Of a stretch of DNA of 64,000 bases, positions 4,791-52,999 are shown one piece after another. The stretch covers positions 15,378,001-15,442,000 of the forward strand of contig OZ076409.1 of NCBI GenBank assembly GCA_964187785.1. Reading direction: 5' to 3'. Each line of letters opens with the position of its first letter. Position 1 is the first letter of the stretch. The notes under the pieces are model-generated. The model saw nothing but the letters and a program-made list of their open reading frames with translations, was not told where the DNA came from and searched no databases. Position numbers and translations under genes: made by a program. The stretch comes from Amphiscolops sp. MND2022 (taxonomy: Eukaryota).

Positions 4791-4796
4791 CAAAAA

Positions 4797-31751: not shown

Positions 31752-31886
31752 AAGTTAGTGCAGACTAGCTTGTTCCTTGTTCAAAAATTGGGCAGCAGAC
31801 CACTTTCGCAGTCTGCTTTCAAATAAAACTTATCAATAGGGTTGTAATACTTACCTATTTAATAAGTTTATCACAACAATTAGGCT
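31752..31886 (-). ncRNA. SL RNA coding sequence, complete but separated from its upstream region by element A1
   Basis: Exon regenerated by the TSD 31869-31886. Confidence 0.8.
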
Positions 31887-33867
31887 TTTAAAGAATTTAT
31901 TGAAAACTGAGAATTAACAAGTAAAAAGTAATGAAGTCTAAGGTATATGTATAAAATGAGTATATGAGTAACTGAAGTGTTGAAAAAGCTGAAGTATGTA
32001 GATGAAGATGCTTGGTTATGGCATTTTTGAGAAAGCGCCAAAATGGGAATGTTTTTTTTTGGTATGAAGTTAGTATAATGTAGTTTGGAGAATGTATGAA
32101 AAAAAGATGTTTGCTCCTGGAAGGAGTTTGTTCTCAAAACCCGTTTTTTGCATACAGGTTGCCAACAACTAGTGCTCGAAAAGAATTGGGAATTGGGTTG
32201 ATTGATGATGGTATTGTAGAGATTTAGAACTTTAAAATTCCAGTCAAAAAGGTCCGAAATTTTTCAGTTTAGTTTTTGTTTTCATTGTATAAGTTTTCAA
32301 CTGCAGTGAAAACTTGTACAATTTTATTCTCCAGATTAATAGTGTAAATTTGGTGGTTTGTAGCATCATAGAATGGATCAAACTTCCGGATCAATGAGTA
32401 AAATTCAAAATGAGAAGTTAAAATAGTGTTAGAGTCAGAATGTTTCCAGTTTGATTCAGATAAAAGATCTTTGAGTTTTTCTTTCTTCAGTGGTTGTACG
32501 AGTGAAAAGGTCCTTTGAATTTTCTTTTCCTTGTCTAGTGTATTGATGTAGCCAGAAGTTTGTTGGGTTTTGATCACATGTTCTTTTATAGGAGGTATTT
32601 CGTTGAAAATAGTTTCGGGTGCCAGTATTTTGTTTTGTTTCTTTTCCAAAAAGAATGGGTATTCATGATATCCATGCTTTGCCGTTGACTGTTGGTCATC
32701 TGCTTGATTTCGGGCAAGGTCTGTTGAGGATTCCCATTCAGTTGAGCGATGCATTAGTTTAGGTTTTTGCATAGGAATGGTATCTTTCTTTGAGTTGTTA
32801 ATGCATGGTTGTTCAGTTTCTGCCACGTTGTTATTGCATTCGGTTTCAGTACCATCATCGGTCTGCTTTGGCGCCTTTGAGATTGGTTCAGCATCATCTG
32901 AATCTGACAGTTCAGGTTCATTAGACATTGGCTCTGTTTCTGCAGTTTCCATAACGTAGTCAGTTGTTAACTTCTGGTTCTGAGATTCACTGTTTTTCTG
33001 TATTTGCTGTTCGTCTGATAGTTGTTTTGGGCATCTTGATTGTTGATGAGCACTGGGAAGGTTCTCATTGACGCATAAAGAGCATTCGAGGAGTGGGATA
33101 CAGCAACATTTGAAAAAAATGCCACTGGAACTAAACATTTTGTCATATGCATTATTGGCCCAGTTTTGTAGTAAACTTTCCTCATTCTCATTGTCAATTA
33201 AAACTGTAATTCTTGCCTCTCCTGTATAAAAAAGGCTGCTATCAGGAAGTCGTCGTTGTTGATGAAAAATTTTGCTACTAAATTTGAAGTTTTGAAGACC
33301 ACAGCTACTCAAAATATCCTCATCCGTCAGAAAGTGTGGTAGGTTTCGGAAAGATATTGGTAATCTTTTTGGATAGACATTGTTGTTCGGGTTGGAATAA
33401 TTGACAGAATAAGGCCGTATTTTCCGATTGCGAAGAGTAATGCCATCGTGAATAAGAGAGGAAGCTGCATTTTCAAGTTTGTAAGGAATGATCACAGTAA
33501 TACACTTCAAATTGCCTTTGTTGCGTAAAATTGTAGTTTTGAAGATGGTAATTTCATTGGAGTTAAGTCGGTTTTTGACGGCCATAACAGCTTCCACAAA
33601 CATTGAATCCAGTAATTTGCTGTTTTTGAACATTTCAGATGTCAGTGGTAAGGCAAAGTTGATAATAATTGGTAATTTGTCCATATTTGAGTTCGATTTC
33701 GACAAGGAAATAACTGCATTTTTGTAACAATTTTGCTCAACATTTTCATTATGATGTTGATCAAGCTCACTCGTGTTCAAATTAGTCATTACTTTTGCAA
33801 CTTTTGCTGCAAAATTTGCAAGATGGCGCTGTGCAAACAAAGTTTGCAGGCTGACAGAGTAACGCCG
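31887..33867 (-). mobile_element. ORF1-only non-LTR element A, copy 1
   Basis: 18-bp TSD TATCACAACAATTAGGCT at 31869-31886 and 33868-33885; 3' end AATAAATTCTTTAAA; single ORF. Confidence 0.9.
32269..33789 (-). CDS. ORF1-like protein A1 (506 aa from first ATG): RRM-like/zinc knuckle, acidic linker, unassigned C-terminal domain
   Basis: ISFRNLPHFL, FYTGEARI, IPLLECSLC..H....C align by eye with the L1/Tx1 ORF1 at 9243-10292. Confidence 0.85.
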   Translation of the reverse strand: MTNLNTSELDQHHNENVEQNCYKNAVISLSKSNSNMDKLPIIINFALPLTSEMFKNSKLLDSMFVEAVMAVKNRLNSNEITIFKTTILRNKGNLKCITVIIPYKLENAASSLIHDGITLRNRKIRPYSVNYSNPNNNVYPKRLPISFRNLPHFLTDEDILSSCGLQNFKFSSKIFHQQRRLPDSSLFYTGEARITVLIDNENEESLLQNWANNAYDKMFSSSGIFFKCCCIPLLECSLCVNENLPSAHQQSRCPKQLSDEQQIQKNSESQNQKLTTDYVMETAETEPMSNEPELSDSDDAEPISKAPKQTDDGTETECNNNVAETEQPCINNSKKDTIPMQKPKLMHRSTEWESSTDLARNQADDQQSTAKHGYHEYPFFLEKKQNKILAPETIFNEIPPIKEHVIKTQQTSGYINTLDKEKKIQRTFSLVQPLKKEKLKDLLSESNWKHSDSNTILTSHFEFYSLIRKFDPFYDATNHQIYTINLENKIVQVFTAVENLYNENKN

Positions 33868-34442
33868 TATCACAACAATTAGGCTAAAAGCAAAGAGTCA
33901 ATTTTTGGAGCGCGAGACTCCTATCTGCGGTACGGACTTGCCATTACCAGCCAACAACTTGTTTTGAGGAGAAATTCTCTTGAAAAGACGACGTTTCAAG
34001 TTATTGACATCTGATGAAACAAAAATATTCCAGAAAAATTGTGAGAAAGCAAAATTTTGACTCTATTACGAAAATGTCTGCTGAAAAGCATAAATTAGTA
34101 AGCTTAAAAATGAAATTCCATGTATTATCAAAAGTCGACTCAGGAGTGTGAAAACACGTTTTAGGGGTAAGTTTGGGCCCTCTTTCCAATGCCGTTGTCC
34201 GTTTTTTGCTATCTGTTCATTTTGACCCCTTTTGCAAAACTGTCACCGAAGTTAAACCACATTTTGTGAAAATAGTAAAAATGACATAACTCAATGAAAA
34301 TTCAAGTGATGGCGGCGAAAATTTCAGCATGGGGGTTTTTTTGGACGCTCTTTCCAATGCCGTTGTCCGTTTTTTGCTATCTGTTCATTTTGACCCCTTT
34401 TGCGAAACTGTCACCGAAGTTAAACCACATTTCTGACAAAAA

Positions 34443-34561
34443 AGGCTACAACACCTGGTGTTCCCAAGCGGTCTCCCATCCAAGTACTAACCAGGCCCTA
34501 TGTTGTTTAAATTCGGTGATCGGACGAGAACCGGTGCATTCAACATGGTATGGTCGTAGCC
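34443..34561 (-). rRNA. 5S rRNA (1 substitution in box A region)
   Basis: 119-nt match; tttaaattcgg variant. Confidence 0.95.
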
Positions 34562-34653
34562 GATCATTGTAAAATCAATAGCTTTATATGCTTAACAACA
34601 AAATTACGTACAATGATACGAAAATTTTCTCGGTCAAAATACGCGTAACTTTT

Positions 34654-34788
34654 AAGTTAGTGCAGACTAGCTTGTTCCTTGTTCAAAAATTGGGCAGCAG
34701 ACCACTTTCGCAGTCTGCTTTCAAATAAAACTTATCAATAGGGTTGGAATACTTACCTATTTAATAAGTTTATCACAACATTTAGGCT
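34654..34788 (-). ncRNA. SL RNA coding sequence downstream of A2
   Basis: Same architecture, 1 substitution in the exon. Confidence 0.8.
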
Positions 34789-36769
34789 TTTAAAGAATTT
34801 ATTGAAAACTGAGAATTTACAAGTAAAAAGTAATGAAGTCTAAGGTATAGGTATAAAAAGAGTATATGAGTAACTGAAGTGTTGAAAAAGCTGAAGTATG
34901 TAGATGAAGATGCTTGGTTATGGCATTTTTGAGAAAGCGCCAAAATGGGAATGTTTTTTTTAGGTATGAAGTTAGTATAATGTAGTTTGGAGAATGTATG
35001 AAAAAAAGATGTTTGCTCCTGGAAGGAGTTTGTTTTCAAAACCCGTTTTTTGCATACAGGTTGCGAACAACTAGTGCTCGAAAAGAATTGGGAATTGGGT
35101 TGATTGATGATGGTATTGTACAGATTTAGAACTTTAAAGTTCCAGTCAAAAAGGTCCGAAATTTTTCAGTTTAGTTTTTGTTTTCATTGTATAAGTTTTC
35201 AACTGCAGTGGAAACTTGTACAATTTTATTCTCCAGATTAATAGTGTAAATTTGGTGGTTTGTAGCATCATAGAATGGATCAAACTTCCGGATCAATGAG
35301 TAAAATTCAAAATGAGAAGTTAAAATAGTGTTAGAGTCAGAATGATTCCAGTTTGATTCAGATAAAAGATCTTCGAGTTTTTCTTTCTTCAGTGGTTGTA
35401 CGAGTGAAAAGGTCCTTTGAATTTTCTTTTCCTTGTCTAGTGTATTGATGTAGCCAGAAGTTTGTTGGGTTTTGATCACATGTTCTTTTATAGGAGGTAT
35501 TTCGTTGAAAATAGTTTCGGGTGCCAGTATTTTGTTTTGTTTCTTTTCCAAAAAGAATGGGTATTCATGATATCCATGCTTTGCCGTTGACTGTTGGTCA
35601 TCTGCTTGATTTCGGGCAAGGTCTGTTGAGGATTTCCATTCAGTTGAGCGATGCATTATATTAGGTTTTTGCATAGGAATGGTATCTTTCTTTGAGTTGT
35701 TAATGCATGGTTGTTCAGTTTCTGCCACGTTGTTATTGCATTCGGTTTCAGTACCATCATCGGTCTGCTTTGGCGCCTTTGAGATTGGTTCAGCATCATC
35801 TGAATCTGACAGTTCAGGTTCATTAGACATTGGCTCTGTTTCTGCAGTTTCCATAACGTAGTCAGTTGTTAACTTCTGGTTCTGAGATTCACTGTTTTTC
35901 TGTATTTGCTGTTCGTCTGATAGTTGTTTTGGGCATCTTGATTGTTGATGAGCACTGGGAAGGTTCTCAATGACGCATAAAGAGCATTCGAGGAGTGGGA
36001 TACAGCAACATTTGAAAAAAATGCCACTGGAACTAAACATTTTGTCATATGCATTATTGGCCCAGTTTTGTAGTAAACTTTCCTCATTCTCATTGTCAAT
36101 TAAAACTGTAATTCTTGCCTCTCCTGTATAAAAAAGGCTGCTATCAGGAAGTCGTCGTTGTTGATGAAAAATTTTGCTACTAAATTTGAAGTTTTGAAGA
36201 CCACAGCTACTCAAAATATCCTCATCCGTCAGAAAGTGTGGTAGGTTTCGGAAAGATATTGGTAATCTTTTTGGATAGACATTGTTGTTCGGGTTGGAAT
36301 AATTGACAGAATAAGGCCGTATTTTCCGATTGCGAAGAGTAATGCCCTCGTGAATAAGAGAGGAAGCTGCATTTTCAAGTTTGTAAGGAATGATCACAGT
36401 AATACACTTCAAATTGCCTTTGTTGCGTAAAATTGTAGTTTTGAAGATGGTAATTTCATTGGAGTTAAGTCGGTTTTTGACGGCCATAACAGCTTCCACA
36501 AACATTGAATCCAGTAATTTGCTGTTGTTGAACATTTCAGATGTCAGTGGTAAGGCAAAGTTGATAATAATTGGTAATTTGTCCATATTTGAGTTCGATT
36601 TCGACAAGGAAATAACTGCATTTTTGTAACAATTTTGCTCAACATTTTCATTATGATGTTGATCAAGCTCACTCGTGTTCAAATTAGTCATTACTTTTGC
36701 AACTTTTGCTGCAAAATTTGCAAGATGGCGCTGTGCAAACAAAGTTTGCAGGCTGACAGAGTAACGCCG
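34789..36769 (-). mobile_element. Element A, copy 2
   Basis: Same termini and TSD. Confidence 0.9.
35171..36691 (-). CDS. ORF1-like protein A2
   Basis: Intact; few aa differences from A1. Confidence 0.85.
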   Translation of the reverse strand: MTNLNTSELDQHHNENVEQNCYKNAVISLSKSNSNMDKLPIIINFALPLTSEMFNNSKLLDSMFVEAVMAVKNRLNSNEITIFKTTILRNKGNLKCITVIIPYKLENAASSLIHEGITLRNRKIRPYSVNYSNPNNNVYPKRLPISFRNLPHFLTDEDILSSCGLQNFKFSSKIFHQQRRLPDSSLFYTGEARITVLIDNENEESLLQNWANNAYDKMFSSSGIFFKCCCIPLLECSLCVIENLPSAHQQSRCPKQLSDEQQIQKNSESQNQKLTTDYVMETAETEPMSNEPELSDSDDAEPISKAPKQTDDGTETECNNNVAETEQPCINNSKKDTIPMQKPNIMHRSTEWKSSTDLARNQADDQQSTAKHGYHEYPFFLEKKQNKILAPETIFNEIPPIKEHVIKTQQTSGYINTLDKEKKIQRTFSLVQPLKKEKLEDLLSESNWNHSDSNTILTSHFEFYSLIRKFDPFYDATNHQIYTINLENKIVQVSTAVENLYNENKN

Positions 36770-37345: not shown

Positions 37346-37464
37346 AGGCTACAACACCTGGTGTTCCCAAGCGGTCTCCCATCCAAGTACTAACCAGGCC
37401 CTATGTTGTTTAACTTCGGTGATCGGACGAGAACCGGTGCATTCAACATGGTATGGTCGTAGCC
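37346..37464 (-). rRNA. 5S rRNA
   Basis: Consensus copy. Confidence 0.97.
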
Positions 37465-37556
37465 GATCATTGTAAAATCAATAGCTTTATATGCTTAACA
37501 ACAAAATTACGTACAATGATACGAAAATTTTCTCGGTCAAAATACGCGTAACTTTT

Positions 37557-37691: not shown

Positions 37692-39672
37692 TTTAAAGAA
37701 TTTATTGAAAACTGAGAATTTACAAGTAAAAAGTAATGAAGTCTAAGGTATATGTATAAAATGAGTATATGAGTAACTGAAGTGTTGAAAAAGCTGAAGT
37801 ATGTAGATGAAGATGCTTGGTTATGGCATTTTTGAGAAAGCGCCAAAATGGGAATGTTTTTTTTTGGTATGAAGTTAGTATAATGAAGTTTGGAGAATGT
37901 ATGAAAAAAAGAAGTTTGCTCCTGGAAGGAGTTTGTTCTCAAAACCCGTTTTTTGCATACCGGTTACGAACAACTAGTGCTCGAAAAGAATTGGGAATTG
38001 GGTTGATTGATGATGGTATTGTAGAGATTTAGAACTTTAAAGTTCCAGTCAAAAAGGTCCGAAATTTTTCAGTTTAGTTTTTGTTTTCATTGTATAGGTT
38101 TTCAACTGCAGTGAAAACTTGTACAATTTTATTCTCCAGATTAATAGTGTAAATTTGGTGGTTTGTAGCATCATAGAATGGATCAAACTTCCGGATCAAT
38201 GAGTAAAATTCAAAATGAGAAGTTAAAATAGTGTTAGAGTCAGAATGTTTCCAGTTTGATTCAGATAAAAGATCTTCGAGTTTTTCTTTCTTCAGTGGTT
38301 GTACGAGTGAAAAGGTCCTTTCAATTTTCTTTTCCTTGTCTAGTGTATTGATGTAGCCAGAAGTTTGTTGGGTTTTGATCACATGTTCTTTTATAGGAGG
38401 TATTTCGTTGAAAATAGTTTCGGGTGCCAGTATTTTGTTTTGTTTCTTTTCCAAAAAGAATGGGTATTCATGATATCCATGCTTTGCCGTTGACTGTTGG
38501 TCATCTGCTTGATTTCGGGCAAGGTCTGTTGAGGATTTCCATTCAGTTGAGCGATGCATTATATTAGGTTTTTGCATAGGAATGGTATCTTTCTTTGAGT
38601 TGTTAATGCATGGTTGTTCAGTTTCTGCCACGTTGTTATTGCATTCGGTTTCAGTACCATCATCGGTCTGCTTTGGCGCCTTTGAGATTGGTTCAGCATC
38701 ATCTGAATCTGACAGTTCAGGTTCATTAGACATTGGCTCTGTTTCTGCAGTTTCCATAACGTAGTCAGTTGTTAACTTCTGGTTCTGAGATTCACTGTTT
38801 TTCTGTATTTGCTGTTCGTCTGATAGTTGTTTTGGGCATCTTGATTGTTGATGAGCACTGGGAAGGTTCTCAATGACGCATAAAGAGCATTCGAGGAGTG
38901 GGATACAGCAACATTTGAAAAAAATGCCACTGGAACTAAACATTTTGTCATATGCATTATTGGCCCAGTTTTGTAGTAAACTTTCCTCATTCTCATTGTC
39001 AATTAAAACTGTAATTCTTGCCTCTCCTGTATAAAAAAGGCTGCTATCAGGAAGTCGTCGTTGTTGATGAAAAATTTTGCTACTAAATTTGAAGTTTTGA
39101 AGACCACAGCTACTCAAAATATCCTCATCCGTCAGAAAGTGTGGTAGGTTTCGGAAAGATATTGGTAATCTTTTTGGATAGACATTGTTGTTCGGGTTGG
39201 AATAATTGACAGAATAAGGCCGTATTTTCCGATTGCGAAGAGTAATGCCCTCGTGAATAAGAGAGGAAGCTGCATTTTCAAGTTTGTAAGGAATGATCAC
39301 AGTAATACACTTCAAATTGCCTTTGTTGCGTAAAATTGTAGTTTTGAAGATGGTAATTTCATTGGAGTTAAGTCGGTTTTTGACGGCCATAACAGCTTCC
39401 ACAAACAATGAATCCAGTAATTTGCTGTTGTTGAACATTTCAGATGTCAGTGGTAAGGCAAAGTTGATAATAATTGGTAATTTGTCCATATTTGAGTTCG
39501 ATTTCGACAAGGAAATAACTGCATTTTTGTAACAATTTTGCTCAACATTTTCATTATGATGTTGATCAAGCTCACTCGTGTTCAAATTAGTCATTACTTT
39601 TGCAACTTTTGCTGCAAAATTTGCAAGATGGCGCTGTGCAAACAAAGTTTGCAGGCTGACAGAGTAACGCCG
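37692..39672 (-). mobile_element. Element A, copy 3
   Basis: Same termini and TSD. Confidence 0.9.
38074..39594 (-). CDS. ORF1-like protein A3
   Basis: Intact ORF. Confidence 0.85.
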   Translation of the reverse strand: MTNLNTSELDQHHNENVEQNCYKNAVISLSKSNSNMDKLPIIINFALPLTSEMFNNSKLLDSLFVEAVMAVKNRLNSNEITIFKTTILRNKGNLKCITVIIPYKLENAASSLIHEGITLRNRKIRPYSVNYSNPNNNVYPKRLPISFRNLPHFLTDEDILSSCGLQNFKFSSKIFHQQRRLPDSSLFYTGEARITVLIDNENEESLLQNWANNAYDKMFSSSGIFFKCCCIPLLECSLCVIENLPSAHQQSRCPKQLSDEQQIQKNSESQNQKLTTDYVMETAETEPMSNEPELSDSDDAEPISKAPKQTDDGTETECNNNVAETEQPCINNSKKDTIPMQKPNIMHRSTEWKSSTDLARNQADDQQSTAKHGYHEYPFFLEKKQNKILAPETIFNEIPPIKEHVIKTQQTSGYINTLDKEKKIERTFSLVQPLKKEKLEDLLSESNWKHSDSNTILTSHFEFYSLIRKFDPFYDATNHQIYTINLENKIVQVFTAVENLYNENKN

Positions 39673-40594: not shown

Positions 40595-42575
40595 TTTAAA
40601 GAATTTATTGAAAACTGAGAATTTACAAGTAAAAAGTAATGAAGTCTAAGGTATATGTATAAAATGAGTATATGAGTAACTGAAGTGTTGAAAAAGCTGA
40701 AGTATGTAGATGAAGATGCTTGGTTATGGCATTTTTGAGAAAGCGCCAAAATGGGAATGTTTTTTTTTGGTATGAAGTTAGTATAATGAAGTTTGGAGAA
40801 TGTATGAAAAAAAGAAGTTTGCTCCTGGAAGGAGTTTGTTCTCAAAACCCGTTTTTTGCATACCGGTTACGAACAACTAGTGCTCGAAAAGAATTGGGAA
40901 TTGGGTTGATTGATGATGGTATTGTAGAGATTTAGAACTTTAAAGTTCCAGTCAAAAAGGTCCGAAATTTTTCAGTTTAGTTTTTGTTTTCATTGTATAG
41001 GTTTTCAACTGCAGTGAAAACTTGTACAATTTTATTCTCCAGATTAATAGTGTAAATTTGGTGGTTTGTAGCATCATAGAATGGATCAAACTTCCGGATC
41101 AATGAGTAAAATTCAAAATGAGAAGTTAAAATAGTGTTAGAGTCAGAATGTTTCCAGTTTGATTCAGATAAAAGATCTTCGAGTTTTTCTTTCTTCAGTG
41201 GTTGTACGAGTGAAAAGGTCCTTTCAATTTTCTTTTCCTTGTCTAGTGTATTGATGTAGCCAGAAGTTTGTTGGGTTTTGATCACATGTTCTTTTATAGG
41301 AGGTATTTCGTTGAAAATAGTTTCGGGTGCCAGTATTTTGTTTTGTTTCTTTTCCAAAAAGAATGGGTATTCATGATATCCATGCTTTGCCGTTGACTGT
41401 TGGTCATCTGCTTGATTTCGGGCAAGGTCTGTTGAGGATTCCCATTCAGTTGAGCGATGTATTAGTTTAGGTTTTTGCATAGGAATGGTATCTTTCTTTG
41501 AGTTGTTAATGCATGGTTGTTCAGTTTCTGCCACGTTGTTATTGCATTCGGTTTCAGTACCATCATCGGTCTGCTTTGGCGCCTTTGAGATTGGTTCAGC
41601 ATCATCTGAATCTGACAGTTCAGGTTCATTAGACATTGGCTCTGTTTCTGCAGTTTCCATAACGTAGTCAGTTGTTAACTTCTGGTTCTGAGATTCACTG
41701 TTTTTCTGTATTTGCTGTTCGTCTGATAGTTGTTTTGGGCATCTTGATTGTTGATAAGCACTGGGAAGGTTCTCATTGACGCATAAAGAGCATTCGAGAA
41801 GTGGGATACAGCAACATTTGAAAAAAATGCCACTGGAACTAAACATTTTGTCATATGCATTATTGGCCCAGTTTTGTAGTAAGCTTTTCTCATTCTCATT
41901 GTCAATTAAAACTATAATTTTTGCCTCTCCTGTATAAAAAAGGCTGCTATCAGGAAGTCGTCGTTGTTGATGAAAAATTTTGCTACTAAATTTGAAGTTT
42001 TGAAGACCACAGCTACTCAAAATATCCTCATCCGTCAGAAAGTGTGGTAGGTTTCGGAAAGATATTGGTAATCTTTTTGGATAGACATTGTTGTTCGGGT
42101 TGGAATAATTGACAGAATAAGGCCGTATTTTCCGATTGCGAAGAGTAATGCCCTCGTGAATAAGAGAGGAAGCTGCATTTTCAAGTTTGTAAGGAATGAT
42201 CACAGTAATACACTTCAAATTGCCTTTGTTGCGTAAAATTGTAGTTTTGAAGATGGTAATTTCATTGGAGATAAGTCGGTTTTTGACGGCCATAACAGCT
42301 TCCACAAACATTGAATCCAGTAATTTGCTGTTTTTGAACATTTCAGATGTCAGTGGTAAGGCAAAGTTGATAATAATTGGTAATTTGTCCATATTTGAGT
42401 TCGATTTCGACAAGGAAATAACTGCATTTTTGTAACAATTTTGCTCAACATTTTCATTATGATGTTGATCAAGCTCACTCGTGTTCAAATTAGTCATTAC
42501 TTTTGCAACTTTTGCTGCAAAATTTGCAAGATGGCGCTGTGCAAACAAAGTTTGCAGGCTGACAGAGTAACGCCG
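40595..42575 (-). mobile_element. Element A, copy 4
   Basis: Same termini and TSD. Confidence 0.9.
40977..42497 (-). CDS. ORF1-like protein A4 (zinc-knuckle His changed to Tyr)
   Basis: Intact ORF; PSAYQQSRC. Confidence 0.85.
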   Translation of the reverse strand: MTNLNTSELDQHHNENVEQNCYKNAVISLSKSNSNMDKLPIIINFALPLTSEMFKNSKLLDSMFVEAVMAVKNRLISNEITIFKTTILRNKGNLKCITVIIPYKLENAASSLIHEGITLRNRKIRPYSVNYSNPNNNVYPKRLPISFRNLPHFLTDEDILSSCGLQNFKFSSKIFHQQRRLPDSSLFYTGEAKIIVLIDNENEKSLLQNWANNAYDKMFSSSGIFFKCCCIPLLECSLCVNENLPSAYQQSRCPKQLSDEQQIQKNSESQNQKLTTDYVMETAETEPMSNEPELSDSDDAEPISKAPKQTDDGTETECNNNVAETEQPCINNSKKDTIPMQKPKLIHRSTEWESSTDLARNQADDQQSTAKHGYHEYPFFLEKKQNKILAPETIFNEIPPIKEHVIKTQQTSGYINTLDKEKKIERTFSLVQPLKKEKLEDLLSESNWKHSDSNTILTSHFEFYSLIRKFDPFYDATNHQIYTINLENKIVQVFTAVENLYNENKN

Positions 42576-43151: not shown

Positions 43152-43270
43152 AGGCTACAACACCTGGTGTTCCCAAGCGGTCTCCCATCCAAGTACTAAC
43201 CAGGCCCTATGTTGTTTAACTTCGGTGATCGGACGAGAACCGGTGCATTCAACATGGTATGGTCGTAGCC
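43152..43270 (-). rRNA. 5S rRNA
   Basis: Consensus copy. Confidence 0.97.
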
Positions 43271-43497: not shown

Positions 43498-45479
43498 TTT
43501 AAAGAATTTATTGAAAACTGAGAATTTACAAGTAAAAAGTAATGAAGTCTAAGGTATATGTATAAAATGAGTATATGAGTAACTGAAGTGTTGAAAGAGC
43601 TGAAGTATGTAGATGAAGATGCTTGGTTATGGCATTTTTGAGAAAGCGCCAAAATGGGAATTGTTTTTTTTTGGTATGAAGTTAGTATAATGTAGTTTGG
43701 AGAATGTATGAAAAAAAGATGTTTGCTCCTGGAAGGAGTTTGTTCTCAAAACCCGTTTTTTGCATACAGGTTGCGAACAACTAGTGCTCGAAAAGAATTG
43801 GGAATTGGGTTGATTGATGGTGGTATTGTAGAGATTTAGAACTTTAAAGTTCCAGTCAAAAAGGTCCGAAGTTTTTCAGTTTAGTTTTTGTTTTCATTGT
43901 ATAAGTTTTCAACTGCAGTGAAAACTTGTACAATTTTATTCTCCAGATTAATAGTGTAAATTTGGTGGTTTGTAGCATCATAGAATGGATCAAACTTCCG
44001 GATCAATGAGTAAAATTCAAAATGAGAAGTTAAAATAGTGTTAGAGTCAGAATGTTTCCAGTTTGATTCAGATAAAAGATCTTCGAGTTTTTCTTTCTTC
44101 AGTGGTTGTACGAGTGAAAAGGTTCTTTGAATTCTCTTTTCCTTGTCTAGTGTATTGATGTAGCCAGAAGTTTGTTGGGTTTTGATCACATGTTCTTTTA
44201 TAGGAGGTATTTCGTTGAAAATAGTTTCGGGTGCCAGTATTTTGTTTTGTTTCTTTTCCAAAAAGAATGGGTATTCATGATATCCATGCTTTGCCGTTGA
44301 CTGTTGGTCATCTGCTTGGTTTCGGGCAAGGTCTGTTGAGGATTCCCATTCAGTTGAGCGATGCATTAGTTTAGGTTTTTGCATAGGAATGGTATCTTTC
44401 TTTGAGTTGTTAATGCATGGTTGTTCAGTTTCTGCCACGTTGTTATTGCATTCGGTTTCAGTACCATCATCGGTCTGCTTTGGCGCCTTTGAGATTGGTT
44501 CAGCATCATCTGAATCTGACAGTTCAGGTTCATTAGACATTGGCTCTGTTTCTGCAGTTTCCATAACGTAGTCAGTTGTTAACTTCTGGTTCTGAGATTC
44601 ACTGTTTTTCTGTATTTGCTGTTCGTCTGATAGTTGTTTTGGGCATCTTGATTGTTGATGAGCACTGGGAAGGTTCTCATTGACGCATAAAGAGCATTCG
44701 AGGAGTGGGATACAGCAACATTTGAAAAAAATGCCACTGGAACTAAACATTTTGTCATATGCATTATTGGCCCAGTTTTGTAGTAAACTTTCCTCATTCT
44801 CATTGTCAATTAAAACTGTAATTCTTGCCTCTCCTGTATAAAAAAGGCTGCTATCAGGAAGTCGTCGTTGTTGATGAAAAATTTTGCTACTAAATTTGAA
44901 GTTTTGAAGACCACAGCTACTCAAAATATCCTCATCCGTCAGAATGTGTGGTAGGTTTCGGAAAGATATTGGTAATCTTTTTGGATAGACATTGTTGTTC
45001 GGGTTGGAATAATTGACAGAATAAGGCCGTATTTTCCGATTGCGAAGAGTAATGCCCTCGTGAATAAGAGAGGAAGCTGCATTTTCAAGTTTGTAAGGAA
45101 TGATCACAGTAATACACTTCAAATTGCCTTTGTTGCGTAAAATTGTAGTTTTGAAGATGGTAATTTCATTGGAGTTAAGTCGGTTTTTGACGGCCATAAC
45201 AGCTTCCACAAACATTGAATCCAGTAATTTGCTGTTGTTGAACATTTCAGATGTCAGTGGTAAGGCAAAGTTGATAATAATTGGTAATTTGTCCATATTT
45301 GAGTTCGATTTCGACAAGGAAATAACTGCATTTTTGTAACAATTTTGCTCAACATTTTCATTATGATGTTGATCAAGCTCACTCGTGTTCAAATTAGTCA
45401 TTACTTTTGCAACTTTTGCTGCAAATTTTGCAAGATGGCGCTGTGCAAACAAAGTTTGCAGGCTGACAGAGTAACGCCG
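43498..45479 (-). mobile_element. Element A, copy 5 (tandem trimer)
   Basis: Separated from A6 only by the 18-bp TSD 45480-45497. Confidence 0.9.
43881..45401 (-). CDS. ORF1-like protein A5
   Basis: Intact ORF. Confidence 0.85.
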   Translation of the reverse strand: MTNLNTSELDQHHNENVEQNCYKNAVISLSKSNSNMDKLPIIINFALPLTSEMFNNSKLLDSMFVEAVMAVKNRLNSNEITIFKTTILRNKGNLKCITVIIPYKLENAASSLIHEGITLRNRKIRPYSVNYSNPNNNVYPKRLPISFRNLPHILTDEDILSSCGLQNFKFSSKIFHQQRRLPDSSLFYTGEARITVLIDNENEESLLQNWANNAYDKMFSSSGIFFKCCCIPLLECSLCVNENLPSAHQQSRCPKQLSDEQQIQKNSESQNQKLTTDYVMETAETEPMSNEPELSDSDDAEPISKAPKQTDDGTETECNNNVAETEQPCINNSKKDTIPMQKPKLMHRSTEWESSTDLARNQADDQQSTAKHGYHEYPFFLEKKQNKILAPETIFNEIPPIKEHVIKTQQTSGYINTLDKEKRIQRTFSLVQPLKKEKLEDLLSESNWKHSDSNTILTSHFEFYSLIRKFDPFYDATNHQIYTINLENKIVQVFTAVENLYNENKN

Positions 45480-45497
45480 TATCACAACAATTAGGCT

Positions 45498-47477
45498 TTT
45501 AAAGAATTTATTGAAAACTGAGAATTTACAAGTAAAAAGTAATGAAGTCTAAGGTATATGTATAAAATGAGTATATGAGTAACTGAAGTGTTGAAAAAGC
45601 TGAAGTATGTAGATGAAGATGCTTGGTTATGGCATTTTTGAGAAAGCGCCAAAATGGGAATGTTTTTTTTGGTATGAAGTTAGTATAATGTAGTTTGGAG
45701 AATGTATGAAAAAAAGAAGTTTGCTCCTGGAAGGAGTTTGTTCTCAAAACCCGTTTTTTGCATACCGGTTACGAACAACTAGTGCTCGAAAAGAATTGGG
45801 AATTGGGTTGATTGATGATGGTATTGTAGAGATTTAGAACTTTAAAGTTCCAGTCAAAAAGGTCCGAAATTTTTCAGTTTAGTTTTTGTTTTCATTGTAT
45901 AAGTTTTCAACTGCAGTGAAAACTTGTACAATTTTATTCTCCAGATTAATAGTGTAAATTTGGTGGTTTGTAGCATCATAGAATGGATCAAACTTCCGGA
46001 TCAATGAGTAAAATTCAAAATGAGAAGTTAAAATAGTGTTAGAGTCAGAATGTTTCCAGTTTGATTCAGATAAAAGATCTTCGAGTTTTTCTTTCTTCAG
46101 TGGTTGTACGAGTGAAAAGGTCCTTTGAATTTTCTTTTCCTTGTCTAGTGTATTGATGTAGCCAGAAGTTTGTTGGGTTTTGATCACATGTTCTTTTATA
46201 GGAGGTATTTCGTTGAAAATAGTTTCGGGTGCCAGTATTTTGTTTTGTTTCTTTTCCAAAAAGAATGGGTATTCATGATATCCATGCTTTGCCGTTGACT
46301 GTTGGTCATCTGCTTGATTTCGGGCAAGGTCTGTTGAGGATTTCCATTCAGTTGAGCGATGCATTAGTTTAGGTTTTTGCATAGGAATGGTATCTTTCTT
46401 TGAGTTGTTAATGCATGGTTGTTCAGTTTCTGCCACGTTGTTATTGCATTCGGTTTCAGTACCATCATCGGTCTGCTTTGGCGCCTTTGAGATTGGTTCA
46501 GCATCATCTGAATCTGACAGTTCAGGTTCATTAGACATTGGCTCTGTTTCTGCAGTTTCCATAACGTAGTCAGTTGTTAACTTCTGGTTCTGAGATTCAC
46601 TGTTTTTCTGTATTTGCTGTTCGTCTGATAGTTGTTTTGGGCATCTTGATTGTTGATGAGCACTGGGAAGGTTCTCATTGACGCATAAAGAGCATTCGAG
46701 GAGTGGGATACAGCAACATTTGAAAAAAATGCCACTGGAACTAAACATTTTGTCATATGCATTATTGGCCCAGTTTTGTAGTAAACTTTCCTCATTCTCA
46801 TTGTCAATTAAAACTGTAATTCTTGCCTCTCCTGTATGAAAAAGGCTGCTATCAGGAAGTCGTCGTTGTTGATGAAAAATTTTGCTACTAAATTTGAAGT
46901 TTTGAAGACCACAGCTACTCAAAATATCCTCATCCGTCAGAAAGTGTGGTAGGTTTCGGAAAGATATTGGTAATCTTTTTGGATAGACATTGTTGTTCGG
47001 GTTGGAATAATTGACAGAATAAGGCCGTATTTTCCGATTGCGAAGAGTAATGCCCTCGTGAATAAGAGAGGAAGCTGCATTTTCAAGTTTGTAAGGAATG
47101 ATCACAGTAATACACTTCAAATTGCCTTTGTTGCGTAAAATTGTAGTTTTGAAGATGGTAATTTCATTGGAGTTAAGTCGGTTTTTGACGGCCATAACAG
47201 CTTCCACAAACATTGAATCCAGTAATTTGCTGTTGTTGAACATTTCAGATGTCAGTGGTAAGGCAAAGTTGATAATAATTGGTAATTTGTCCATATTTGA
47301 GTTCGATTTCGACAAGGAAATAACTGCATTTTTGTAACAATTTTGCTCAACATTTTCATTATGATGTTGATCAAGCTCACTCGTGTTCAAATTAGTCATT
47401 ACTTTTGCAACTTTTGCTGCAAATTTTGCAAGATGGCGCTGTGCAAACAAAGTTTGCAGGCTGACAGAGTAACGCCG
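45498..47477 (-). mobile_element. Element A, copy 6 (tandem trimer)
   Basis: TSDs 45480-45497 and 47478-47495. Confidence 0.9.
45879..47399 (-). CDS. ORF1-like protein A6
   Basis: Intact ORF. Confidence 0.85.
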   Translation of the reverse strand: MTNLNTSELDQHHNENVEQNCYKNAVISLSKSNSNMDKLPIIINFALPLTSEMFNNSKLLDSMFVEAVMAVKNRLNSNEITIFKTTILRNKGNLKCITVIIPYKLENAASSLIHEGITLRNRKIRPYSVNYSNPNNNVYPKRLPISFRNLPHFLTDEDILSSCGLQNFKFSSKIFHQQRRLPDSSLFHTGEARITVLIDNENEESLLQNWANNAYDKMFSSSGIFFKCCCIPLLECSLCVNENLPSAHQQSRCPKQLSDEQQIQKNSESQNQKLTTDYVMETAETEPMSNEPELSDSDDAEPISKAPKQTDDGTETECNNNVAETEQPCINNSKKDTIPMQKPKLMHRSTEWKSSTDLARNQADDQQSTAKHGYHEYPFFLEKKQNKILAPETIFNEIPPIKEHVIKTQQTSGYINTLDKEKKIQRTFSLVQPLKKEKLEDLLSESNWKHSDSNTILTSHFEFYSLIRKFDPFYDATNHQIYTINLENKIVQVFTAVENLYNENKN

Positions 47478-47495
47478 TATCACAACAATTAGGCT

Positions 47496-49475
47496 TTTAA
47501 AGAATTTATTGAAAACTGAGAATTTACAAGTAAAAAGTAATGAAGTCTAAGGTATATGTATAAAATGAGTATATGAGTAACTGAAGTGTTGAAAAAGCTG
47601 AAGTATGTAGATGAAGATGCTTGGTTATGGCATTTTTGAGAAAGCGCCAAAATGGGAATGTTTTTTTTGGTATGAAGTTAGTATAATGTAGTTTGGAGAA
47701 TGTATGAAAAAAAGAAGTTTGCTCCTGGAAGGAGTTTGTTCTCAAAACCCGTTTTTTGCATACCGGTTACGAACAACTAGTGCTCGAAAAGAATTGGGAA
47801 TTGGGTTGATTGATGATGGTATTGTAGAGATTTAGAACTTTAAAGTTCCAGTCAAAAAGGTCCGAAATTTTTCAGTTTAGTTTTTGTTTTCATTGTATAA
47901 GTTTTCAACTGCAGTGAAAACTTGTACAATTTTATTCTCCAGATTAATAGTGTAAATTTGGTGGTTTGTAGCATCATAGAATGGATCAAACTTCCGGATC
48001 AATGAGTAAAATTCAAAATGAGAAGTTAAAATAGTGTTAGAGTCAGAATGTTTCCAGTTTGATTCAGATAAAAGATCTTCGAGTTTTTCTTTCTTCAGTG
48101 GTTGTACGAGTGAAAAGGTCCTTTGAATTTTCTTTTCCTTGTCTAGTGTATTGATGTAGCCAGAAGTTTGTTGGGTTTTGATCACATGTTCTTTTATAGG
48201 AGGTATTTCGTTGAAAATAGTTTCGGGTGCCAGTATTTTGTTTTGTTTCTTTTCCAAAAAGAATGGGTATTCATGATATCCATGCTTTGCCGTTGACTGT
48301 TGGTCATCTGCTTGATTTCGGGCAAGGTCTGTTGAGGATTTCCATTCAGTTGAGCGATGCATTAGTTTAGGTTTTTGCATAGGAATGGTATCTTTCTTTG
48401 AGTTGTTAATGCATGGTTGTTCAGTTTCTGCCACGTTGTTATTGCATTCGGTTTCAGTACCATCATCGGTCTGCTTTGGCGCCTTTGAGATTGGTTCAGC
48501 ATCATCTGAATCTGACAGTTCAGGTTCATTAGACATTGGCTCTGTTTCTGCAGTTTCCATAACGTAGTCAGTTGTTAACTTCTGGTTCTGAGATTCACTG
48601 TTTTTCTGTATTTGCTGTTCGTCTGATAGTTGTTTTGGGCATCTTGATTGTTGATGAGCACTGGGAAGGTTCTCATTGACGCATAAAGAGCATTCGAGGA
48701 GTGGGATACAGCAACATTTGAAAAAAATGCCACTGGAACTAAACATTTTGTCATATGCATTATTGGCCCAGTTTTGTAGTAAACTTTCCTCATTCTCATT
48801 GTCAATTAAAACTGTAATTCTTGCCTCTCCTGTATGAAAAAGGCTGCTATCAGGAAGTCGTCGTTGTTGATGAAAAATTTTGCTACTAAATTTGAAGTTT
48901 TGAAGACCACAGCTACTCAAAATATCCTCATCCGTCAGAAAGTGTGGTAGGTTTCGGAAAGATATTGGTAATCTTTTTGGATAGACATTGTTGTTCGGGT
49001 TGGAATAATTGACAGAATAAGGCCGTATTTTCCGATTGCGAAGAGTAATGCCCTCGTGAATAAGAGAGGAAGCTGCATTTTCAAGTTTGTAAGGAATGAT
49101 CACAGTAATACACTTCAAATTGCCTTTGTTGCGTAAAATTGTAGTTTTGAAGATGGTAATTTCATTGGAGTTAAGTCGGTTTTTGACGGCCATAACAGCT
49201 TCCACAAACATTGAATCCAGTAATTTGCTGTTTTTGAACATTTCAGATGTCAGTGGTAAGGCAAAGTTGATAATAATTGGTAATTTGTCCATATTTGAGT
49301 TCGATTTCGACAAGGAAATAACTGCATTTTTGTAACAATTTTGCTCAACATTTTCATTATGATGTTGATCAAGCTCACTCGTGTTCAAATTAGTCATTAC
49401 TTTTGCAACTTTTGCTGCAAAATTTGCAAGATGGAGCTGTGCAAACAAAGTTTGCAGGCTGACAGAGTAACGCCG
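47496..49475 (-). mobile_element. Element A, copy 7 (tandem trimer)
   Basis: TSDs 47478-47495 and 49476-49493. Confidence 0.9.
47877..49397 (-). CDS. ORF1-like protein A7
   Basis: Intact ORF. Confidence 0.85.
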   Translation of the reverse strand: MTNLNTSELDQHHNENVEQNCYKNAVISLSKSNSNMDKLPIIINFALPLTSEMFKNSKLLDSMFVEAVMAVKNRLNSNEITIFKTTILRNKGNLKCITVIIPYKLENAASSLIHEGITLRNRKIRPYSVNYSNPNNNVYPKRLPISFRNLPHFLTDEDILSSCGLQNFKFSSKIFHQQRRLPDSSLFHTGEARITVLIDNENEESLLQNWANNAYDKMFSSSGIFFKCCCIPLLECSLCVNENLPSAHQQSRCPKQLSDEQQIQKNSESQNQKLTTDYVMETAETEPMSNEPELSDSDDAEPISKAPKQTDDGTETECNNNVAETEQPCINNSKKDTIPMQKPKLMHRSTEWKSSTDLARNQADDQQSTAKHGYHEYPFFLEKKQNKILAPETIFNEIPPIKEHVIKTQQTSGYINTLDKEKKIQRTFSLVQPLKKEKLEDLLSESNWKHSDSNTILTSHFEFYSLIRKFDPFYDATNHQIYTINLENKIVQVFTAVENLYNENKN

Positions 49476-50051: not shown

Positions 50052-50170
50052 AGGCTACAACACCTGGTGTTCCCAAGCGGTCTCCCATCCAAGTACTAAC
50101 CAGGCCCTATGTTGTTTAACTTCGGTGATCGGACGAGAACCGGTGCATTCAACATGGTATGGTCGTAGCC
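50052..50170 (-). rRNA. 5S rRNA
   Basis: Consensus copy. Confidence 0.97.
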
Positions 50171-50262
50171 GATCATTGTAAAATCAATAGCTTTATATGC
50201 TTAACAACAAAATTACGTACAATGATACGAAAATTTTCTCGGTCAAAATACGCGTAACTTTT

Positions 50263-50398
50263 AAGTTAGTGCAGACTAGCTTGTTCCTTGTTCAAAAAAT
50301 TGGGCAGCAGACCACTTTCGCAGTCTGCTTTCAAATAAAACTCATCAATAGGGTTGGAATACTTACATATTTAATAAGTTTATCACAACAATTAGGCT
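50263..50398 (-). ncRNA. SL RNA coding sequence downstream of B1; exon end mutated AG| to AT|
   Basis: acttacatat instead of acttacctat. Confidence 0.7.
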
Positions 50399-51351
50399 TT
50401 TAAAGATTGTATTGGACCTTTTAATGTATAAATCAAATAGTCTTTATAGTAAGTCTAAGTATAAATTGTATAAAAGATATAAACGGTATAAAAGGTGTAC
50501 AGAGTACTGTATAAGAGTATGAAAAAGTACTGAGTGAAAAATGGAAGCTTGTTTGAAAGTTCAGGCAAAAAAGAACGTTGTTTTTTTGAAGAAATTAGTA
50601 TAATGTAGTCTTGAGTATGTGGGGTAAAAGTGATGTTTGCTCCTGGATGGAGTTATTGGATCAAACTGTTTTTTGGCTTTTTTAATAGCATGGTATTGAA
50701 CTTTACAAGACTTGGGATTTGAGGGTGTAGCATATCAAGGAGTGGGTTTTGAGTTATTTGTGTTGTTACAAAAAATAGCATCAATCTTGTTTTTCAAATG
50801 GGATAAAGTCATATCTAACTTTTCCTTGGAGATTTACTAAATAAATGATGTTCTCGGGTTTGTAAAAGAAGGCATCCAGTCTTCCTTTGATGTATTTGAA
50901 GGCATCGTAGTTGGCGATCTTTGAAGAGGAGGTTCGGCTTCTCCACTCTTTGTCTTCAAACATCTCTTGTTGTGCTGATTCCGATAGTTTTTGGACATAT
51001 CTTAGTTGGTTAACAACAACTTTTTTATCGTTAATGATGTTGATATCACCTCCTTTGTGATCACATTCTGCTAGTTTAGGATATTTTGATTCCATTCTGT
51101 TGACAGTTTGAATAATTTCGTTGTCCACATCGAGGTAAAACGGTAAAAAAGCAAAATCGGGATCCACTTTCGTGGCTTTGTTTTCAGGTTCATCAGCTGA
51201 CTCCTCCTCCTCCTCAGAAGGTATTGGCTCAGTATCTTCATTGCTAAGATTGTTTTTTTGTGTAGAGTGATGTTTGCATTGCTTCTTATGATGGCCCATA
51301 AATTGGCGTTTTCCTTCGTTACAATTCTCACATTTTACAATGTGTTATTGT
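50399..51351 (-). mobile_element. ORF1-only element B, 5'-truncated copy
   Basis: TSD 50381-50398 and 51352-51369; matches the 3' ~935 bp of B2; ORF remnant 50781-51334. Confidence 0.9.
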
Positions 51352-51369
51352 TATCACAACAATTAGGCT

Positions 51370-52988
51370 TTTAAAGATTGTATTGGACCTTTTATTGTAT
51401 AAATCAAATAGTCTTTATAGTAAGTCTAAGTATAAATTGTATAAAAGATATAAACGGTATAAAAGGTGTACAGAGTACTGTATAAGAGTATGAAAAAGTA
51501 CTGAGTGAAAAATGGAAGCTTGTTTGAAAGTTCAAGCAAAAAAGAACGTTGTTTTTTTTGAAGAAATTAGTATAATGTAGTCTTGAGTATGTGGGGTAAA
51601 AATGATGTTTGCTCCTGGATGGAGTTATTGGATCAAACTGTTTTTTGGCTATTTTAATAGCATGGTATTGAACTTTAAAAGACTTGGGATTTGAGGGTGT
51701 AGCATATCAAGGAGTGGGTTTTGAGTTATTTGTGTTTGTTACAAAAAATAGCATCAATCTTGTTTTTCAAATGGGATAAAGTCATATCTAACTTTTCCTT
51801 GGAGATTTACTAAATAAATGATGTTCTCGGGTTTGTAAAAGAAGGCATCCAGTCTTCCTTTGATGTATTTGAAGGCATCGTAGTTGGCGATCTTTGAAGA
51901 GGAGGTTCGGCTTCTCCACTCTTTGTCTTCAAACATCTCTTGTTGTGCTGATTCCGATAGTTTTTGGACATATCTTAGTTGGTTAACAACAACTTTTTTT
52001 ATCGTTAATGATGTTGATATCACCTCCTTTGTGATCACATTCTGCTAGTTTAGGATATTTTGATTCCATTCTGTTGACAGTGTGAATAATCTCGTTGTCC
52101 ACATCGAGGTAAAACGGTAAAAAAGCAAAATCGGGATCCACTTTCGTGGCTTTGTTTTCAGGTTCATCAGCTGACTCCTCCTCCTCAGAAGGTATTGGCT
52201 CAGCATCTTCATTGCTAAGATTGTTTTTTTGTGTAGAGTGATGTTTGCATTGCTTCTTATGATGGCCCATAAATTGGCGTTTTCCTTCGTTACAATTCTC
52301 ACATTGTAACAAGGTTTGAATGTAACATTTGAAGGGAATTTCATTAGTAACAAACTGGTTCAAAAAGGCTTGTTGGTTCCATGATTTGATGTTTTCTAAT
52401 TGGCATTGATTGGCAATCTCTATTTCAGCATAACAGATTCCAGTAAAGGCTTCGATGTCGTCAGAAATTCTTACTCTTTGGTGGCGTAATTTGGAAATTT
52501 TGTACTCTTGCAGATTACAAGCCTCCACAATCTCTCCATCTTCTAAAAAGTGTGGTAAATTGCGGAATTTCAAAGTGAATTGCTTTGGGTAGGAGTTAGA
52601 ACAAACATCACTGTTTTGGAATGCATAAATTATCCGGTTTTTGTAAGGAATTCCTTTAAGAAGTAGGTTTTTGAAGTCGTTTTCTATCGAGTTTGGAGCA
52701 ATAATTTTGATGCATTCAAGCTTCTTTTCATGCTCATGCGCTGGCGCATGTTTGGACACGTACGATTTAATGCATGTCACGCTGTCAATATGAGTAGGCG
52801 ATAAAGCATGTAAAAGCTTGCAAAGGAATTCTTTGTAAACAGCTTGCTTTATGTTTGGGCTGGTAATTTCTTCTTTTGTGTAAGGAATGATGAATTCTGC
52901 TGTCAATAAAGGCATTGTTCAGGTAATTTTCGTCTTCTCTGCCGCAGCAGTGAGAGTAGAGTTAGCAAATAATCGCTGACACACGCAG
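51370..52988 (-). mobile_element. ORF1-only element B, full-length copy (~1.6 kb)
   Basis: Left TSD complete; right TSD (52989-52999) cut by the Helitron-type 5' end. Confidence 0.88.
51754..52915 (-). pseudogene. ORF1-like protein B (~386 aa), one +1 frameshift in a T-run near 51995
   Basis: LKFRNLPHFL, FTG, LLQCENC..GHHKKQC. The truncated copy B1 has 6 T and reads through where B2 has 7 T. Confidence 0.82.
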
Positions 52989-52999
52989 TATCACAACAA

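Follow-up and report, generated by a model that had tools for sequence, protein, structure and literature searches.

ORF1-only retroelements at one site of acoel spliced leader RNA genes: a probable lineage of reverse-transcriptase-less parasites of site-specific LINEs

The HAL1 ('half-L1') elements of mammals are non-autonomous long interspersed nuclear elements (LINEs) in which open reading frame 1 (ORF1) is kept and ORF2 is missing; contemporary L1s gave rise to HAL1 families on repeated occasions, and the copies are scattered and show no insertion specificity. SLACS and CRE are inserted co-oriented with the spliced leader (SL) and use the SL promoter, and HeT-A of Drosophila is a member of the Jockey group. 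HeT-A is a retrotransposon without long terminal repeats (non-LTR) that encodes only an ORF1 (Gag) protein and no reverse transcriptase (RT), occupies a special niche, outnumbers its partners and is thought to borrow its RT (PMC5537684). SL exons are known as LINE targets, the NeSL elements being SL-specific; CRE and NeSL are early-branching clades with a restriction-like endonuclease, and target-specific LINEs with an apurinic/apyrimidinic endonuclease (APE) are placed in the Tx1 and R1 clades, their targets being multicopy RNA genes (PMC4640811). The present analysis concerns a stretch of 64,000 nucleotides (nt) from the acoel Amphiscolops sp. MND2022 (chromosome-scale contig C1, positions 15,378,001-15,442,000), called the window and used for all coordinates unless another contig or locus is named, and two families of ORF1-only retroelements, A and B, that are inserted there in the exons of SL RNA genes.

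A and B are considered, with good confidence, as non-autonomous non-LTR retrotransposons that encode an ORF1-type protein only, are specific for the SL RNA gene and are mobilised by LINEs resident at the same SL site. The analysis supports the proposal of an earlier note on this DNA, in which protein-coding elements without RT form an old lineage that parasitises SL-specific LINEs: at least five autonomous families (aut1 to aut5) are found at the same site, the ORF1 tree contains a 100/100 split, and synonymous divergence (dS) is saturated.

The closest likeness is to HeT-A (with TART and TAHRE), which shares ORF1-only coding, confinement to one niche and the co-residence of autonomous, RT-encoding elements. 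The earlier note did not name a precedent for ORF1-only coding joined with site specificity; HeT-A is one (PMC5537684). Whereas HeT-A adds to chromosome ends, A and B use a nicked, 18-nt-defined site inside a small-RNA gene, and unlike HeT-A they have L1-like APE LINEs as partners, apparently a host-gene promoter, and an extra C-terminal domain. Unlike HAL1, they are site-specific and belong to a diversified lineage of their own, with 20-31% identity to any resident autonomous ORF1. SLACS, CZAR and CRE of trypanosomatids and NeSL-1 of nematodes are likewise inserted into the SL exons of tandem SL genes; they carry a restriction-like endonuclease, whereas the autonomous LINEs found here carry an APE and an L1-like ORF2, and A and B carry no enzyme. 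No ORF1-only satellite lineage is described for the known SL-specific families in the available part of PMC4640811. The LINEs found here resemble those of the Tx1 and R1 clades in combining APE and RT with a strict multicopy-RNA-gene target, and in an ORF1 with RNA recognition motifs (RRMs) and a CCHC motif, the 'Type I' ORF1 that is typical of Tx1-like elements (PMC5203782); the SL gene is absent from the targets named in the available part of PMC4640811. An APE and RT ORF2 and an RRM and CCHC ORF1, both features of Tx1-clade LINEs, were found in the autonomous partners, and none of the 19 database matches of the autonomous LINE search carried an RT-clade name. What is considered new is the presence of APE-type, L1-like SL-specific LINEs, of a diversified ORF1-only lineage under selection that shares their 18-nt site without descending from them, of a private C-terminal domain and of an apparent exchange of termini. 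The finding adds an APE-type, L1-like lineage to the SL-specific retrotransposons, until now of the restriction-like-endonuclease type only as far as the available part of PMC4640811 describes them; no prior description of such a system was found in the literature searched, supplements, Repbase and Dfam not being covered.

The array is built from units of about 904 bp in which a 5S rRNA gene alternates with an SL RNA gene, both on the minus strand (12 5S rRNA genes in the window, all on the minus strand, Rfam RF00001). On the minus strand the SL exon reads AGCCTAATTGTTGTGATAAACTTATTAAATAG and is followed by GTAAGT. From nt 2 onward it is identical to the SL of the acoel Symsagittifera roscoffensis as printed in PMC9911081, and the available part of that paper makes no mention of SL-associated retroelements. 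The 18-mer TATCACAACAATTAGGCT (plus strand; complement of SL nt 1-18) has 19 exact occurrences on the plus strand of the window and none on the minus strand, with one extra copy (1 mismatch) at 34771. This bears out the claim that all copies are co-oriented with the SL. Every A and B element in the window is bracketed by the 18-mer: the insertion point lies between SL nt 18 and 19, the orientation is that of the SL, and SL nt 1-18 stands upstream (promoter side) of each element with a complete SL downstream. The array features and the A and B copies are as follows.

30951..30982, minus strand: uninterrupted SL exon of 32 nt in an empty array unit (18-mer and SL comparison)
31887..33867, minus strand: A copy 1, ORF 32269-33789, 18-mers at 31869-31886 and 33868-33885
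34789..36769, minus strand: A copy 2, ORF 35171-36691, 3'-side 18-mer at 34771-34788 with 1 mismatch
37692..39672, minus strand: A copy 3, ORF 38074-39594
40595..42575, minus strand: A copy 4, ORF 40977-42497
43152..43270, minus strand: 5S rRNA gene of an array unit, one of the 12 in the window (Rfam RF00001, 117.5 bits)
43498..45479, minus strand: A copy 5, the reference copy and first of three head-to-tail copies, ORF 43881-45401
45498..47477, minus strand: A copy 6, ORF 45879-47399
47496..49475, minus strand: A copy 7, ORF 47877-49397
50399..51351, minus strand: B copy, 5'-truncated, with rearranged or extra nucleotides at its 5' junction
51370..52989, minus strand: B copy, full length, ORF 51983-52915, frameshifted in a T-run to 310 amino acids (aa)

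The seven A copies measure 1,980-1,982 bp and are 98.8-100% identical to each other; as had been claimed, all seven ORFs are open (506 aa each). The further claim of one ORF per full-length copy thus holds for A and fails for the full-length B of the window because of its frameshift; intact B ORFs (387 aa) were found in five loci elsewhere in the genome. That B copy lies at the array edge, where its upstream SL copy is limited to 12 nt (52990-53001). The 3' ends are those reported earlier (A ...TTCTTTAAA, B ...ATCTTTAAA), and the A and B proteins share 30% identity over 204 residues (E 2e-26). Neither an endonuclease nor an RT was detected in the A and B proteins (0 Pfam families, no match at E ≤ 1), and no ORF2 remnant was found when 10 LINE ORF2 proteins were compared by tblastn with 8 ORF1-only elements (best E 0.039), so that the reported absence of both enzymes was upheld. 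Between their junctions, ORF1-only elements are 1.4-2.0 kb long.

The ORF of A and B is a true LINE ORF1 relative, with a tandem RRM-like region and a CCHC knuckle. The A protein matched the ORF1s of 7 LINE rows from this genome with BLASTP E values of 2e-9 to 7e-27, and an alignment places the ORF1 core and the CCHC motif in both the ORF1-only and the LINE ORF1 proteins. AlphaFold, run on an alignment of 17 sequences, models residues 40-240 and 378-500 of A with confidence and a disordered acidic linker between them; the two regions correspond to the following stretches of the reference copy.

44682..45284, minus strand: two RRM-like alpha/beta domains (A residues 40-240), core shared with LINE ORF1 (Foldseek, alignment)
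43902..44270, minus strand: C-terminal domain (A residues 378-500), present in ORF1-only families only (alignment, AlphaFold)

In a Foldseek comparison of the predicted structure, residues 40-240 gave 83 matches of tandem-RRM type at E ≤ 0.001, including HuR, HuD, Sxl and NONO/SFPQ (E 3e-5 to 4e-4; HuR RRM1-2, E 4.7e-5; Sxl, template-modelling score 0.44 on the target). A C-x2-C-x9-10-H-x4-5-C motif follows the RRM region; B, F, autX (a complete LINE described below) and every autonomous ORF1 have it intact, A and D/H keep it in degenerate form, and C, E and G no longer possess it, the letters C to H designating further ORF1-only families. The 'Type II' ORF1p of L1 (Transposase_22), which is built from a coiled coil, a single RRM and the L1 C-terminal domain, was not recognised by Pfam at E ≤ 1, the PDB matches of the ORF1 profile included no L1 ORF1p chain (weak, unrelated rows only, best E 0.024), and the AlphaFold model of A contains two RRM-like domains and no long coiled coil. 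The homology to L1/Tx1 ORF1 proposed earlier is therefore retained as a relationship to LINE ORF1s of Type I and given up for the mammalian L1 Transposase_22 type. The C-terminal domain (about 125 residues) was also modelled alone, with a predicted local distance difference test score (pLDDT) of 88.6 and a predicted template-modelling score (pTM) of 0.80. Structure comparisons of this model gave nothing at E ≤ 0.001 with Foldseek (best E 0.42) and none of 48,161 chains at Z ≥ 5 with VIA-align (best Z 3.6), which neither shows nor disproves that the fold is novel. Six such domains searched against Pfam returned chance-level rows only (E ≥ 0.046), the ESM Atlas gave no usable match, and no similarity was found to any autonomous ORF1 or ORF2 compared.

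SL-specific, APE-type autonomous LINEs are present in this genome. Next to another match of the A protein lies a LINE with an A-like 3' end (...TTCTTTAGAAGCC), and a genome search with the RT of this LINE returned 63 rows, 31 of them in SL-array regions. Ten loci (L021-L030) contain a LINE with an ORF1 and an ORF2 of 983-1166 aa encoding APE and RT (split by one stop in L024). Their 3' ends (...TTTAGA, ...TTCAAA, ...TTTAAA or ...TTTGAA) directly precede SL nt 1, and the 5' junction follows SL nt 16-18 in nine of the ten (L021-L028 and L030), that of L029 lying inside the spacer. At least five families, aut1 to aut5, were distinguished among the SL-site autonomous LINEs (RT identity to aut1 41-52%). 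The ORF2 of aut5 is collinear with human L1 ORF2p (E 4e-55, residues 14-867), and the Pfam families Exo_endo_phos (APE) and RVT_1 were found in the aut1-type copy L012, in autX (L013) and in the aut1 copy of the window. autX is a complete LINE on contig C8, outside the SL arrays; it is low-copy, its ORF1 is 30% identical to that of A, and its ORF2 is very distant from those of aut1-5 (branch length 3.4). The aut1 copy of the window lacks the first 214 nt, the last 27 nt and both clean SL junctions.

5876..10748, minus strand: defective, rearranged aut1 copy, 99% nucleotide identity to L027 over nt 215-5125
8135-9295 (APE) and 7111-8139 (RT), minus strand: ORF2 pieces of this aut1 copy (Pfam)

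Genome-wide counts were obtained with about 0.2 Mb of array sequence examined and are all to be taken as lower bounds or pattern counts. A six-frame search with the A protein gave 89 matches, of which 40 were full-length rows (97-100% protein identity) in SL arrays on contigs C1, C12 and C13; 35 of these 40 have no stop. Where the earlier note had counted two families, at least eight ORF1-only families were found: A, B (with two tail variants), C, D/H, E, F, G and the fragment I. Some SL sites hold two such families in tandem (E-F in L015), or an ORF1-only element in tandem with an autonomous LINE (B-aut5 in L025). At least 56 SL starts are interrupted in the arrays of chromosome C1, against 1,370 SL starts of the uninterrupted type genome-wide; a part of the acoel SL units is interrupted, which may bear on the maintenance of SL gene dosage.

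In one locus (L023, 8890-8951, locus orientation), two copies of SL nt 1-18 enclose only the last 26 nt of the aut3 tail. This remnant is an extreme 5'-truncated insertion, joined at a GTGATA microhomology, and it adjoins a B copy without its own last 22 nt.

The C-terminal domain allowed the lineage to be sought elsewhere: a profile of it retrieved 16 proteins among 1.84 billion representatives, all of at most 477 aa and 37-98% identical to ORF1-only families of this genome. For one of them, P0036 (412 aa), none of the 37 matches found in this genome at E ≤ 1e-40 exceeds 65% identity, and because of this ceiling the ORF1-only lineage is probably present in at least one other genome. The N-terminal half of P0036 resembles B and its C-terminal domain resembles that of D/H, which suggests domain shuffling between the two ORF1-only sub-clades.

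The hallmarks of retrotransposition were found in these elements, namely the 18-nt duplication, a 5'-truncated B copy, duplications at off-target insertions and a tail shared with aut5. Junctions between SL nt 8-18 and an A/C-type 5' untranslated region (UTR) lie in arrays in 46 of 49 cases and elsewhere in three. These three off-target copies belong to the C family; their first base is SL nt 1, give or take one or two bases, and they end in ...AAAAGCC. They are flanked by duplications of about 306, 106 and 177 bp, and at the nick their targets read AGCC, TGCC and CGCC. SL nt 3-17 likewise open a full-length aut1 copy that is dispersed.

In L020 and L012 (approximately C7:66663083-66670203), an off-target full-length aut1 that begins with SL nt 3-17 is joined directly, at the terminal AGCC of the aut1, to a 5'-truncated ORF1-only D element; the direct repeat on either side of the pair measures 47 nt and is only about 82% identical. 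The pair could have been produced by one reverse-transcription event with a template switch from one RNA to the other, or by two nested insertions.

How many of the copies in the window are insertions in their own right has to be considered separately. The earlier note counted nine insertions at one site with one target-site duplication; the identical site and the 18-nt duplication stand, while their independence is not confirmed, since the variants among the A copies are mosaic, and three separate events at least are certain (A, full-length B and 5'-truncated B). The variant patterns of the seven A copies are mutually incompatible and the flanking units are nearly invariant. With mosaic A variants and too few flanking variants, array recombination or gene conversion is inseparable from repeated insertion, and recombination within the array is evidently at work. 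It may be proposed that one or a few old insertions, now immobile, owe their copy number solely to unequal crossing-over and to gene conversion, inside single SL arrays and from one array to another, and four blocks of one unit plus one A copy do repeat with a period of 2,903 bp. The mosaic patterns agree with this proposal, as does the proportion of open A ORFs (35/40), which is near the neutral expectation, by estimate, for copies 1-2% diverged. It is nevertheless judged unlikely. A copies 5-7 lie head to tail with exactly the 18-mer as spacer, the 5'-truncated B adjoins the full-length B, several families occur in tandem at one site, A-type copies are found in the arrays of three chromosomes at 97-100% identity, and the off-target C copies have long target duplications of their own. 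In addition, variable sites in 14 A copies are scarcer in the ORF (32 in 1,521 nt) than in the UTRs (24 in 461 nt; Fisher p 0.001), and indels are confined to the A-run of the 3' UTR, with none in the ORF.

For promoter use, nick position, priming by annealing, mobilisation in trans, partner identity and the role of the C-terminal domain, we infer the following from the junctions, the termini and the protein comparisons. A duplicated segment covering SL nt 1-18, together with target-primed reverse transcription in SL orientation, places the first nick on the antisense strand at 5'-TTAGGCT/AAAAGC-3' (nick at the slash); the nick proposed earlier (GGCT/AAAA) agrees with this geometry and gains support from the off-target copies. 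The off-target 5' starts at SL nt 1 are most simply read as the mark of a template RNA that begins at the SL start and would be driven by the SL promoter, and the ...AAAAGCC ends point to read-through into the downstream SL and priming on (A)GCC. For R1-type elements, read-through target sequence at the 3' end of the RNA is known to guide precise insertion. An A copy lying after SL nt 18 would thus be transcribed from the SL promoter into an RNA that has SL nt 1-18 first and reads into the downstream SL. The ORF1 protein would be translated and presumably coats its own RNA, while endonuclease and RT would be supplied in trans by complete SL-site LINEs, the best candidate for A being aut5. The APE would nick the antisense strand at 5'-..TTAGGCT/AAAAGC-3', just upstream of SL nt 1; the freed ..GGC[T]-3' end would anneal to the read-through (A)GCC of the RNA and prime reverse transcription, and a second nick after SL nt 18 would give rise to the 18-nt duplication.

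The choice of partner is suggested by the termini, of which the following belong to the reference A copy.

43498..43531, minus strand: terminal 34 nt of A, 91% identity to the 34 nt that end aut5 (L025), candidate recognition/priming tail
43649..43757, minus strand: 3' UTR block conserved among A, B, C and D/H (..CCAGGAGCAAACA..ACTACATTATACTAA..)

The tail of aut5 recurs at 86-92% identity in the final 34-39 nt of A, C, D and H, and close to the 5' end a stretch of 12 nt (GGCGTTACTCTG) is common to A, C and aut5. The 5' end of G shares 22 nt (91%) with aut2, and the two forms of B are 98% identical until the last 41-59 nt, where their tails become wholly different. Coding regions and termini with different histories are what would be expected if the ORF1-only lineage acquires the recognition ends of whichever autonomous partner is active, as these comparisons suggest. 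Mobilisation in trans is proposed from co-residence and the shared tail. The 3' UTR block was not found in the autonomous LINEs scanned; outside A, B, C and D/H, F keeps the second motif and E has only a match with 3 mismatches to the first. Its predicted secondary structure contains 5 pairs with 0 compensatory changes, which places the conservation at the level of the sequence. The 3' UTR motif also contains TACTAAC/T, resembling a branch point, and is followed within about 20-60 nt, in those families that were looked at by eye, by a pyrimidine-rich stretch and AG; the 3' UTR could conceivably hold an acceptor for splicing or trans-splicing.

The enzymes could also come from another LINE, namely relatives of autX or any L1-like ORF2p, specificity then being provided by annealing of the read-through SL. 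The ORF1-only proteins group with the ORF1 of autX, their nearest relative; off-target copies need GCC microhomology only, and the nick T/AAAA resembles the generic preference of the L1 endonuclease. Against this source stand the great distance of the autX ORF2 from those of aut1-5 and the low copy number of autX and its absence from SL sites, and the identical junctions (SL nt 16-18 and nt 1) and the aut5 tail are most simply explained by one machinery. This origin of the enzymes is regarded as very unlikely, and mobilisation by the SL-site LINEs is retained.

Concerning the origin of the coding region, the ORF1s of A and B are 20-26% identical to those of aut1-5, which are 35-46% identical among themselves. 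In a maximum-likelihood tree of 17 ORF1 proteins, a branch supported at 100/100 separates A, B, C, D/H, E, F, G and autX from aut1-5 and three other LINEs. The C-terminal domain and two 3' UTR motifs are present in both ORF1-only sub-clades and were not found in autX or the autonomous elements scanned, a distribution that favours a single origin. Ratios of nonsynonymous to synonymous divergence (dN/dS) are 0.35 (D/H), 0.20 (B/F), 0.14 (C/E) and 0.25 (C/G), with dS of 2.1-3.3 for B/F, C/E and C/G and 0.12 for D/H; for A/C and A/E no dS could be calculated. Between families the synonymous sites have reached saturation, and the ORF1 is under purifying selection. The lineage of ORF1-only elements is an old one that has split into at least eight families. 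Site-specific LINEs are known to have deletion derivatives (the R2 'SIDE' elements), and the earlier note had itself named recent internal deletion as the contrary case. That A and B arose in this way from SL-site autonomous LINEs, keeping ORF1 and termini and losing ORF2, has a very slim chance of being right: the site, the orientation, the terminal ...TTCTTTAAA and the last 34 nt shared by A and aut5 speak for it, and it is contradicted for aut1-5 by the low ORF1 identity on opposite sides of the 100/100 split, by a C-terminal domain and 3' UTR motifs not found in autonomous elements, by the lack of any ORF2 remnant and by families that differ at saturated synonymous sites. Judging from the sequences compared, A and B are not recent deletions of aut1-5.

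Several points nevertheless weigh against the interpretation of A and B as SL-specific elements mobilised by the co-resident LINEs. Transcription from the SL promoter is proposed from 5' ends only, and the A sequence was found in none of the RNA runs listed. What marks aut5 as the partner is a likeness over 34-39 nt at the 3' end and over 12 nt at the 5' end, copies of aut5 type were recognised twice among the 63 rows of the RT search, and short A/T-rich tails with a 4-letter annealing site could be convergent. Monophyly of the ORF1-only elements excluding autX was found in 52% of bootstrap trees and was not rejected by the approximately unbiased (AU) test (p 0.42), and, with about 0.2 Mb of array sequence examined, an autonomous LINE whose ORF1 is A-like may have escaped notice. 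The copy number within one array may be due partly or largely to unequal crossing-over. Within A, the ratio of nonsynonymous to synonymous polymorphism (pN/pS) is 0.56 (p 0.095), not significant alone, and the proportion of open A ORFs is, as said, close to that expected of young neutral copies. Since the copies differ by about 1%, the seven open ORFs of the window are weak evidence when taken alone.

A further proposal goes beyond mobilisation by the SL-site LINEs and is put forward tentatively, as a possibility with somewhat less than an even chance: the ORF1-only elements may be ancient, self-sustaining hyperparasites, rather than by-products of their hosts, that have a selected RNA-packaging protein and a private C-terminal domain with a fold known from nowhere else, and that switch partners by exchanging short 5' and 3' termini with the SL-specific autonomous LINE family active at the time. 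The domain perhaps captures a foreign ORF2p, or multimerises. If this proposal is true, the elements would form, with the at least five APE-type SL-specific LINE families, the first described multi-level parasite community in an SL array. The purpose of ORF1 proteins and the strictness with which LINEs prefer their own RNA are open questions for which ORF1-only elements are natural experiments, and the defined target, the junctions and the candidate partners make trans-complementation, partner switching and the role of the extra domain directly testable.

Other features of the window were recorded. The array is interrupted by a near-perfect palindrome with inverted arms at 13388-20671 and 22201-30204, made of blocks 97-99% complementary (the longest 1,648 nt) and containing 84-bp tandem repeats at 14448-14948 and 28656-29155; its ORFs have 0 Pfam matches, and it may be real or an assembly artefact. 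Tandem repeats (periods of 446 bp and about 165 bp) flank the array on both sides, at 1-3606 and 53100-64000. They hold tRNA-like 3' halves (..GGTTCGATTCCC..), and ARAGORN predicted 0 tRNA genes.

Genome-wide, 688 matches of SL nt 1-18 preceded by a non-T were considered as possible dispersed elements and rejected as such, because only three of the 49 A/C-type 5' junctions lie outside arrays; most of the dispersed matches carry the full SL. The full SL sequence is also dispersed beyond the arrays, in 19 of the 75 C1 rows among the SL matches listed and in rows on C2 and C3. These copies may have come from trans-spliced mRNAs as retrocopies, or they may be SL genes that stand alone.

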